The notes below the pieces were generated by a model. The model was not told the origin of the DNA and did no database searches. It saw only the letters and a list, made by a program, of their open reading frames with translations. DNA of 17,695 bases from a virus (taxonomy: Duplodnaviria > Heunggongvirae > Uroviricota > Caudoviricetes): positions 1 through 17,695 of the IMG/VR virus record IMGVR_UViG_2562617151_000007; one strand, given 5' to 3'. Position 1 is the stretch's first letter. The number at the start of each line of letters is the position of its first letter. Positions 2,042 through 4,408 of the stretch are shown here, one piece after another. The translations under genes were made by a program, and so were the position numbers.

Positions 2042-4408
2042 TTAAATAAACATAAGAATAAACATCAGAAGTTCCTCGTATCTGATACCATACTGATAGC
2101 CAGCAGGTTTAATAATAACCTGCCTTCCTGTGTAATATTCCTCGTCGTACCACTCTCCTGTTTCATTGTTTTTAACACTCCTAATCAATACCTCTGGAGC
2201 ATAAATATCATCCCATTCATCATAACACCAGAACGCATAGTTATTAGGGTCAAGACCGTATTTTCTGAGAATATTACCTACAGTTTGTGCACCAACACCG
2301 AAATGAATCCGAGCGCCATCACTCTTGATTTTTACTGCATCTTTAAATTTAAACCTCCAGATATTTTCCTTTATTTCAAGCGCAGCAAGACGCTCTGATT
2401 CTGTTGTTTTCTCGTCAGCCTCAATACGCAATTTCAGCTCTTCATTCGACGTATTGATACTGCCAGTACCAGCGTATACCTGTGACCATCGAAATGCTGA
2501 TGTTCCGTTTGAGTTAACATTATCAACAGTTGGTTTTATAAGGCCAGAAAAATGAGTTTCAGGTGATGTATGAAGAAGATATCCGCCAGAATCGTTTTTT
2601 GTGCGTAATTCTATAGAGTCTACAATTATTCCACTGCGACGAATAATGATAGCGTTATTACCTTGTGCACCATTGTCTTTCTGAGTGGATAGTGTGTATC
2701 CGGTACGAGTATCTATCCTCCATCTTTTGGTATCTTCTGATGCTTCCTGATTATAAAGATAAATAGAGTTATCAGTGTAATTATTTTTGCCATCAATATT
2801 TGTAAGTGTAAATGTGTTATTTACTTTGTCATCATTGACCATGAAATTGGCAAGAGTGTAGAGAGGAGATGCAGTATACTGGCTGCAATTAAAACCACGT
2901 GCGTTTTGTATGTTAAGTAATGTTGTGACATTAGCATTAATGCTAATATTGGAAAAGTTTGTCGCCTGATTTGCTCCATGTATTGATGATGTTACTCCTA
3001 TCTGAGCTCCAATATCCAATGTACCAAAACTTACATTAATGAAGTTGTTTGCATCGCCACCATCTATAATTATTCCTTTTTTAGTCGTCGTATAACCTGA
3101 TGCACTGCTAATCTCCAATCCATTAATGGTGCACACTCTTGGTCTGATGAGTCTAATTCCTACCCATTCATTTCCGTGGTCATATCCTCCTCCTGCTCTA
3201 TGTATGGCTAGTCCATTAGCAATCAAAAGAAATCTGTTATCAAGATTAATAGGGTGAAGCTGGCTATTAATGATAACGTTTGTCCATATAGACTCACCAT
3301 ACGCATAGCGATTTGATTCGAACACTCTATCCTGAGCATCATAAACACCGTTTAGGGATCTAGCAACATCGACATTGGTAAGATTGAAATATGTCTTCTG
3401 CTTAATTTCAAAAAAATTGGCAACGTTATGCGTTGTGATATCACTCACACGCATGGATAAAATACCTTCTTCTGGAGCGGTGCGAATGAATCCATCAAGG
3501 AACTGTTCATTATAACTTTTGGCTATCTGATAACATCCAACAGCATCAATGCGTTCGATTGTGAACTGCCAACTATCACCACAGTTAAAAGACCATTCCC
3601 AACCGTATTTCTGTGCGAATTCATCAGAATCAATATTTGCAGTCTCAGAACAGAAAGATAAAAATCTAAATGTTGGTTTTGGCCTTAGATGATTAAGCCC
3701 GACACCTCTTGGGGTATATATGGCATTAGCGCCATTCCCGCCTTTGCTTTTAATTGTAAGGTGACTTAAACCAAATTCAACATCATGCTTAGTTGGTGCA
3801 GCGAAAACAAATCCATCTTTTGGTGATGTGGTATTATCAAACACAATAACCGTTTTACCCTGTCCATCTCCACACATATTCACTGGTGGTATATTAACTG
3901 GTCCAATTAAATTATATATTCCAGTTGGGATATATAGCTTCCCACCATCTCCAAGAGCATTTGCTGCTGCAATAAATGCCACCGTATCATCGTTAACACC
4001 GTCACCTTTCGCCCCATAATGCTGTGGCGTAATTAACAGCATACGGTCAGAAAAAATCTCTGTCCTAAGTTGATCAGGATCGTATTTTAATACATTTGGA
4101 AAATAAAACTGCTGAGTGCCATATGCATCATATACAGCCATAGAATGGCCTTGCACAGTTACGAATTTGGCAATCTGTCCGTTATATACAGGATAACCAG
4201 CAGCGTTAATGATGATTGGTTGAGAAACAGGAACGTGAGAGCCGTCTTCGTTCTCTACATAAACCGGAATCTGGTTTTCAGTATTTACCGGGTCAGTGTC
4301 AATTTTACCGATATAAATTTTGCCATTGGCTACGGCTTTAAAGGAACGCGCCATAGTGAAGAGTTGCGAAGGCATCGATACGATCACATTGGCTGTAATG
4401 TCTGTCAT
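2042..4408 (-). CDS. Tailspike protein: P22 gp9-like head-binding domain + beta-helix depolymerase domain + C-terminal intramolecular chaperone-like domain
   Basis: 788-aa ORF. First ~115 aa ([11 protein letters not shown]...[21 protein letters not shown]...VLKYDPDQ) match the P22 gp9 particle-binding domain. Centre has the [19 protein letters not shown] pectate-lyase-fold signature. C-terminus (TSNEELK...[13 protein letters not shown]...[11 protein letters not shown]) resembles a peptidase S74 auto-chaperone. Confidence 0.85.

Follow-up and report, generated by a model that had tools for sequence, protein, structure and literature searches.

An intact tailspike gene of the CUS-3 plan, with a predicted self-cleaving chaperone, in a head-less P22-like prophage remnant at argW of Escherichia coli

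What does an apparently complete tailspike gene encode, and does it still serve a purpose, when the prophage that carries it can build no head? The question is raised by IMG/VR virus record IMGVR_UViG_2562617151_000007 (Caudoviricetes), positions 1 to 17,695 of which were analysed as one stretch, referred to here as the window, running from the intS start codon to the torI stop codon. The window is a complete, head-less P22-like prophage remnant of the KplE1/CPS-53 type, located at argW in E. coli. Judging from its sequence, the gene at 2042-4408 very probably encodes a complete tailspike of functional type from a CUS-3/Sf6-like (P22-like) podovirus, acting by the mechanism proposed below and carried as a passenger in the remnant.

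Three parts of the tailspike

The gene and its parts, with protein positions in amino acids (aa), are as follows.

2042..4408, minus strand: tailspike gene, an intact open reading frame (ORF) for a 788-aa, 88-kDa precursor
4055..4408, minus strand: P22-type head-binding (virion-attachment) domain, aa 1-118, by PF09008 and matches to Sf6, P22 and CUS-3
2549..4054, minus strand: linker helix and right-handed parallel beta-helix, the presumed polysaccharide-binding and -cleaving part, aa 119-620
2489..3448, minus strand: variable sub-module, aa 321-640, by sliding identity against loci L007 and L005
2450..2548, minus strand: stalk segment preceding the predicted cleavage site, aa 621-653, with D629 and R640, by a sub-threshold End_tail_spike match and PDB alignments
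2045..2449, minus strand: predicted intramolecular chaperone domain (peptidase S74 type), aa 654-788, 135 aa, 16 kDa
2432..2449, minus strand: codons for S654-N-E-E-L-K659, holding the predicted Ser-Lys catalytic dyad, by alignments

The gene lies exactly where the initial annotation had placed it, and on the minus strand: it opens with ATG at 4408, closes with TAA at 2042-2044 and has no internal stop, while the same region read on the plus strand has many. That it is intact, as first claimed, is borne out by the 77 blocks of independent assemblies that index an identical 788-aa protein, so the ORF is no sequencing accident. Roughly 190 and 300 E. coli database sequences carry the tailspike in its two alleles. 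NCBI labels members of the cluster 'phage tailspike protein', and NCBIfam holds no model for the tailspike or for the gp16, Rap1a-like or TorI proteins of the window. G+C content is 38.7% in the gene versus 43.1% in the window and is similar across all parts of the gene.

The first ~115 residues had been described as near-colinear with P22 gp9, and this holds. Pfam places PF09008 (Head_binding) at aa 1-113, at the N-terminus and above the curated threshold, with all 113 profile positions covered (E = 8.8e-66, 219.7 bits against a cut-off of 24). Among PDB sequences, full-length P22 gp9 (2xc1) is colinear over aa 2-118 (E = 5e-50) and Sf6 gp14 (7sg7) is nearer still (aa 1-120, E = 3e-63); Pantoea WceF (6tgf) also matches the N-terminal domain (E = 5e-8). 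Identity to the Sf6 and CUS-3 domains is about 95-97%, CUS-3 differing at ~3 of 115 positions (~97% identical over aa 1-115). By this kinship, the domain would attach to the gp4/gp10 hub at the tail of P22-like virions.

Behind the adaptor lies the part presumed to recognize the host surface. A pectate-lyase-like profile, PF12708, matches aa 130-204 in Pfam (E = 2.4e-8). An AlphaFold2 monomer model, built on a 31-sequence alignment, has a mean predicted local distance difference test score (pLDDT) of 79 and contains a long parallel beta-helix, in which most 10-residue blocks of aa 130-500 exceed pLDDT 90 and later residues score lower, as well as a C-terminal alpha/beta domain (pLDDT 75-93). 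Confidence is low at the N-terminus, where few aligned sequences carry the head-binding domain. Structural neighbours of the beta-helix include HK620, Sf6-type and many other tailspikes, with the K5 lyase second-best; the ranking is headed by tailspike depolymerases and by enzymes whose substrates are acidic polysaccharides. On the model, the beta-helix fold is certain. The order of head-binding domain, beta-helix and chaperone, as initially annotated, is confirmed by Pfam, PDB sequences, the AlphaFold2 model and Foldseek taken together.

Across the 31 homologues, six acidic residues of the beta-helix are invariant (D278, D288, D305, E334, D347 and E372) and H327, K338, R361, H403 and R404 are nearly so, a set consistent with an active site. 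Of the 'beta-helix depolymerase' in the initial annotation the fold stands, and 'depolymerase' is a label that we infer from that fold and the conserved acidic residues. The beta-helix belongs to an uncharacterised family on a CUS-3-type scaffold. An allele from strain NRZ14408 is ~100% identical to the window tailspike over aa 121-320 and 641-788 and only 42-78% identical, per 40-residue segment, over aa 321-640. Given such flanks, the sub-module has either been exchanged or evolves fast, and it is probably the specificity determinant. Two unrelated prophages of NRZ14408 share this variant (L007 3001-5367; L005 11397-13979), its carriers being an 860-aa protein in a podovirus-like prophage and the tailspike of a P22-like phage.

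The C-terminus carries the two motifs that were first taken to mark a peptidase S74 chaperone: S-x-x-x-L-K is present as SNEELK at aa 654-659, and the second motif, of 11 residues, lies at aa 704-714. In PDB sequences, aa 621-783 match the Klebsiella phage Kp7 fibre (7y5s, E = 5.8e-20), the T5 L-shaped fibre pb1 (4uw8, E = 2.4e-14), the chaperone of the K1F endosialidase endoNF (3gw6, E = 1.1e-10) and the GA-1 neck appendage (3gud, E = 2.7e-8); Foldseek pairs the domain with 3gw6 and 4uw8 at probability 1.0. The Pfam match to End_tail_spike at aa 621-653 is sub-threshold. Full-length P22 gp9 and Sf6 chains, and HK620 by tblastn, match only within aa 1-120 and not at aa 621-788, in line with the earlier statement that these tailspikes lack the chaperone.

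In T5 pb1 the nucleophile is Ser1264, the activator is Lys1269 and the bond cut is Thr1263-Ser1264, while Arg1250 from the neighbouring chain and Asp1239 form a folding sensor (PMC4690869). In our alignment, S654, K659, T653, R640 and D629 of the tailspike are the equivalents of S1264, K1269, T1263, R1250 and D1239. The stretch T653-S654-N-E-E-L-K659 aligns with TSDARLK in 7y5s and with the Ser-to-Ala crystallisation mutants TADARLK (T5 pb1 S1264A) and TANGERK (endoNF). Both residues of the dyad are conserved among aligned homologues (S654 in 25 and K659 in 26 of 27), as are T653 (in 26), H702 (in 25), D629 (23 of 31) and R640 (19 of 26). With all five residues of the cleavage mechanism present and the chaperone homology alongside, we propose a Ser-Lys autocleavage in which T653-S654 is the predicted scissile bond, giving predicted products of 71.7 kDa (aa 1-653) and 16.0 kDa (aa 654-788).

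Predicted maturation and action

We propose a mechanism whose steps are all drawn by homology. Three 88-kDa chains would assemble, the 135-residue C-terminal chaperone domains trimerising first and templating the folding of stalk and beta-helix. Once the triple-stranded stalk had formed, R640 of the neighbouring chain, D629 and T653 would position S654 by K659; the T653-S654 bond would then be cut, freeing the 16-kDa chaperone and leaving a mature, kinetically stable spike of 72 kDa. The N-terminal domain would dock this trimer on the gp4/gp10 tail hub, and the beta-helix would bind and cleave an E. coli surface polysaccharide, either capsule or O-antigen. In lysogens, a cytoplasmic hexapeptide O-acetyltransferase encoded beside the tailspike probably modifies the same polysaccharide, like neuO beside the CUS-3 tailspike. 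The 17.7-kb remnant has itself lost its genes for replication, late-gene control, lysis, head and tail hub via nested deletions.

Several observations weigh against this proposal. In Pfam, the window protein by itself reaches 19.1 bits for Peptidase_S74 (PF13884; aa 654-718, E = 1.6e-3), short of the cut-off of 22. The monomer model is poor across the stalk and cleavage region, aa 601-654, which we attribute to a segment that should fold only as a trimer. The fold search does not tell lyase from hydrolase, the neighbours of the beta-helix comprising lyases, epimerases and hydrolases. Finally, the late promoter and the gp23-type activator are deleted from the remnant, and the stretch from the upstream terminator to the tailspike start codon contains no promoter-like site, which together make expression in the remnant doubtful.

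The weak Pfam score would fit a C-terminal domain that is not cut off and serves the mature spike as a knob for trimerisation or receptor binding, as would the Asn at position 655, where Asp is the commoner residue among homologues (8 N versus 18 D). Yet all five proposed cleavage residues (PMC4690869) are in place, the closest homologues share SNEELK, and Pfam S74 does recognize more distant homologues, which have SDxxxK. PF13884 also matches 16 of the 31 end-to-end-aligned homologues at E <= 0.001 (best E = 6.7e-17), so the low score of the window protein reflects divergence of its subfamily and not absence of the domain. The domain search that the initial annotation had put forward as a check on S74 splits: Pfam falls short on the single protein, whereas the PDB homologues, the family-level matches and the conserved residues speak for the domain. 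By that sequence evidence, the C-terminal chaperone domain is real, and we regard an uncleaved knob as very unlikely.

A further alternative is that the beta-helix acts as an adhesin, binding glycan without depolymerase activity. It gains from the fact that catalytic residues could not be assigned. It loses from the clustering of invariant acidic and basic residues at aa 278-410 in 31 homologues of only 30-81% identity, and from the acidic-polysaccharide enzymes and tailspike depolymerases that head the list of structural neighbours. We consider a pure adhesin improbable and retain a spike that would cleave what it binds as the preferred reading.

The remnant and the fate of its tailspike gene

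The remainder of the window has the following features.

1..1158, plus strand: intS integrase, left prophage end, beside argW in the source genome
1351..2022, plus strand: CatB/Vat-like hexapeptide-repeat O-acetyltransferase, convergent with the tailspike gene
4472..4491, minus strand: intrinsic-terminator-like hairpin and T-run between ant and the tailspike gene
4509..5387, minus strand: antirepressor Ant (Bro-N and P22_AR_C)
5456..5962: immI-type switch, with arc at 5456-5617 (minus strand) and mnt at 5708-5962 (plus strand)
5959-6294, plus strand: Rap1a/Tai-family protein, type VI secretion immunity-like (PF18602, E = 1e-14)
6310-6699, plus strand: 129-aa protein, PHROG 2651, N-terminus signal-peptide-like by eye
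6724..8565, minus strand: P22 gp16-type DNA ejection protein, intact
8713..9378, minus strand: truncated replication protein O, 221 aa versus 286 aa in less deleted relatives
8730..8744: 15-bp direct-repeat footprint of the deletion joining the truncated O gene to a gp20 remnant
11712-12008: N-like ORF, intact
12685-13212: HNH_3 and AP2-domain protein, homing-endonuclease-like, plus strand, inside the early-left operon, called also in contigs L008 and L009
17495..17695, plus strand: torI-type excisionase, right prophage end, the torI region of GF4 being 99.3% identical

Ends of the KplE1/CPS-53 type sit between tRNA-Arg (argW) and dsdC, and the same ends are found in GF4, O15_8X, PSJ-29 and strain C. 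Contig L009 of GCA_053132655.1 is 100% identical to window positions 1-14408, with yfdC and mlaA adjoining intS. The adjacency of int, acetyltransferase and tailspike was considered as the junction of a circular or free phage and rejected, as the argW/intS and torI/dsdC contexts place attP upstream of int. Of the late operon, gp16 and the tailspike are the only genes to survive. The genes of the window include no coat, portal, scaffold, terminase, gp4/gp10/gp26, lysis or gp23-type gene; the remnant can make neither heads, as had first been noted, nor the hub that the spike binds.

The deletion joins the truncated O-like gene to the last bases of gp20, followed by gp16. Two contigs that carry the identical tailspike retain more DNA between copies of the repeat: L008 has 942 bp more (copies at 4708-4722 and 5665-5679), and L010 has 2945 bp more, with gp7 and gp20 (copies at 2705-2719 and 5665-5679). 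DNA flanking the deletions is 99.95-100% identical, with 0-3 substitutions in about 13 kb across the three variants. This is a nested, recent deletion series at argW, and a tidy example of step-wise prophage decay. We ascribe the intact state of the tailspike gene to the youth of the remnant and not to any demonstrable use.

The simplest reading of its present state is a silent, recently stranded gene, and we lean slightly towards the view that it is not transcribed in the remnant, has no current function and is intact only through the recency of the deletions. The missing late promoter and gp23-type antiterminator, the loss of all head and tail-hub partners and the terminator directly upstream, with no promoter-like site after it, all favour such silence. 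So does the identical protein in the three variants, whose few substitutions indicate that decay has had no time to set in. Genes of this kind are nevertheless subject to decay, as indicated by truncated ORFs with the head-binding domain alone, which exist on Mb-size E. coli contigs; only ORFs of about 110-210 aa were returned when this domain alone was the search query. On the other side, the deletion has set the pR operon (cro, cII, O'; 8713-10139, minus strand) upstream of gp16, ant and the tailspike (2042-8565, minus strand) in the same orientation and, as an N-like gene also survives, antiterminated read-through during the SOS response could express the spike. Full-length tailspikes are also kept in five of five independently deleted argW remnants, although that sample is biased. 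A stranded gene is compatible with our explanation of the protein, since it concerns present use and not what the gene encodes.

The five head-less remnants (GF4 L003, O15_8X L002, PSJ-29 L011, strain C L012 and the window) have different internal deletions, and their full-length tailspikes, of 788, 788, 824, 632 and 882 aa, differ in their receptor-binding parts. All five keep gp16, and the four besides GF4 keep ant, arc and mnt. They were chosen by similarity to the window and are a biased sample, for which reason retention of the left arm in several of them was discarded as a sign of selection.

Copies outside the remnant bear on the history of the gene. The tailspike occurs at 98.4-98.8% identity in four complete E. 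coli genomes. In two of these it belongs to a P22-like prophage that is apparently complete, with portal, scaffold, coat and tail genes: AVS0578 has this prophage beside torT, and AH21A060 has it at the bio/ybhB site. In GF4 the gene is part of another, distinct head-less remnant at argW. Among four tailspike copies, the ratio of non-synonymous to synonymous substitution rates (dN/dS) is 0.11-0.23, and replacements are not in excess on the lineage of the window copy; these values are no test of selection within the remnant lineage, whose variants are essentially identical.

It is tempting to speculate that the remnant still uses its tailspike. SOS-induced read-through from pR could yield free, self-matured trimers that arm P22-like phages, co-resident or superinfecting, or that trim acetylated polysaccharide of the host. 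If this were true, the repeated survival of intact tailspikes in independent argW remnants would reflect selection. We give this scenario very little credence. Similarly, the host might keep tailspike and acetyltransferase as domesticated enzymes with which to alter its own capsule, O-antigen or biofilm glycan, in parallel with Pantoea WceF, a tailspike-like protein, or the tailspike might lend co-resident or superinfecting P22-like phages a second specificity. The WceF match indicates that bacterial use of this scaffold exists, and the intact tailspikes of the five remnants and the low dN/dS would agree with domestication. However, the low dN/dS is explained by a history in active phage, the same allele being present in complete prophages, and the remnant lineage is not old enough for selection to show. 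The protein lacks a signal peptide and, with the lysis genes gone, an export route, and the five remnants owe their place in the sample to their likeness to the window. Domestication seems to us far-fetched, and a stranded gene for a functional-type spike is the account towards which we still lean.

Other genes of the remnant complete its description. After the deletion junction the order is truncated O, cII, cro, a cI-type repressor with an S24 domain, the N-like gene and early-left genes including RecT. The N-like gene was recognized by a Pfam N_peptide match at E = 0.007 only, together with 97.6% identity to an O15_8X fragment annotated N. Between arc and mnt, overlapping divergent promoter-like sites occupy 5652-5685 (TTGACA-17-TATATT on the minus strand, with 11 of 12 matches, and TTGAGA-17-TATCAT on the plus strand), a layout that we take to be that of P22 Pant/Pmnt. 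The Rap1a-like and 129-aa genes are placed between gp16 and mnt, presumably the interval in which P22 carries sieA. E. coli strain C and PSJ-29 have the same Rap1a gene in their argW remnants, followed there by a different hypothetical protein, and the pair in the window may be an orphan immunity moron.

Relatives, substrate and known systems

The beta-helix and chaperone of this tailspike travel between virion types. The region from aa ~119 to 788 is found behind at least five N-terminal adaptors (PF09008, PF18668, PF12571, PF03906, the last that of the T7 fibre, and PF27114), the 860-aa protein in the podovirus-like prophage of NRZ14408, an unrelated element, being one example of such a swap. 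Among isolated phages (50,697 phage records), only the T7-like Escherichia phage PSK1 (PP541512), whose host is uropathogenic E. coli, has a related beta-helix, its tail spike being 56% identical over aa 131-615 and 54% over aa 131-783, chaperone included. A literature search on phage PSK1 found no paper, hence no clue to its substrate.

The O-acetyltransferase gene is convergent with the tailspike in every case examined (AVS0578, GF4, AH21A060 and NRZ14408), the pair occurring in complete and defective prophages and at three chromosomal sites. The enzyme is of the soluble hexapeptide-repeat type, like NeuO, and not a membrane acyltransferase of the Oac type; it is the positional counterpart of the phase-variable neuO in CUS-3. 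Three features, a NeuO-like acetyltransferase, a relative in a T7-like phage and structural neighbours rich in lyases, together mildly favour a capsular or other acidic polysaccharide over O-antigen as substrate, a lean that we offer only as a lead. Colanic acid was set aside as a candidate: the match to PHROG 8280 ('colanic acid degradation'; E = 5e-107) owes most of its score to the head-binding domain that the two have in common.

Modular exchange of tailspike adaptor, catalytic part and chaperone is textbook knowledge, as in CUS-3 and K1F (PMC5380687), and the tailspike described here has little import for principle. Its value lies in a well-delimited and, as read from its sequence, apparently functional depolymerase candidate, whose linked acetyltransferase may mark the substrate. 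Potential uses include capsule or O-antigen typing and an anti-biofilm reagent.

How the parts compare with known systems depends on which part is considered. The tailspikes of P22 (gp9), Sf6 (gp14) and HK620 share with the window protein the head-binding domain and a right-handed beta-helix, but their C-termini form an interdigitated beta-prism or 'caudal fin', and they have no cleavable chaperone. The chaperones 3gw6, 4uw8, 7y5s and 3gud match aa 621-783 in both sequence and fold and share the Ser-Lys dyad, the Asp/Arg/Thr sensor and the ARxHFGVxAQ motif (PMC4690869); they differ in being attached to a sialidase stalk, the T5 bullet domain or a fibre, on virions of other types. The PSK1 spike combines a related beta-helix with the chaperone, although it stands at the T7 gp17 position of a lytic phage and has a different N-terminal adaptor. 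The K5 lyase KflA of coliphage K5A (2x3h), which we take to have a beta-helix followed by the same type of chaperone, is only 13% identical to the window tailspike; it has a different N-terminus, a T7/SP6-like virion and heparosan as its substrate.

The nearest system is CUS-3 (CP000711), a P22-like prophage of E. coli K1, specific for K1 and of the same argW-integrating lineage, with a near-identical intS-type integrase. Its endosialidase tailspike, SiaK1, is credited to Stummeyer and colleagues (2006) in the CUS-3 record and in PMC5380687. The gene order matches that of the window (int, the O-acetyltransferase neuO, tailspike, ant and mnt), and the two acetyltransferases are both of hexapeptide type without being close relatives. 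The CUS-3 tailspike also follows the same three-part plan of Head_binding, catalytic part and Peptidase_S74, the last at 40.8 bits, and the novelty that the initial annotation had implied for a chaperone on a P22-type tailspike does not survive this comparison. The N-terminal domain of CUS-3 is common to HK620, Sf6 and P22, and its catalytic domain is common to K1F (PMC5380687). Where CUS-3 has a beta-propeller sialidase, a beta-barrel and a stalk in a protein of 981 aa, the window tailspike has a beta-helix of the pectate-lyase fold, and the two chaperone domains are about 29% identical. The three-part architecture is thus already known from CUS-3, and what is specific to the window is the uncharacterised beta-helix family built into it.

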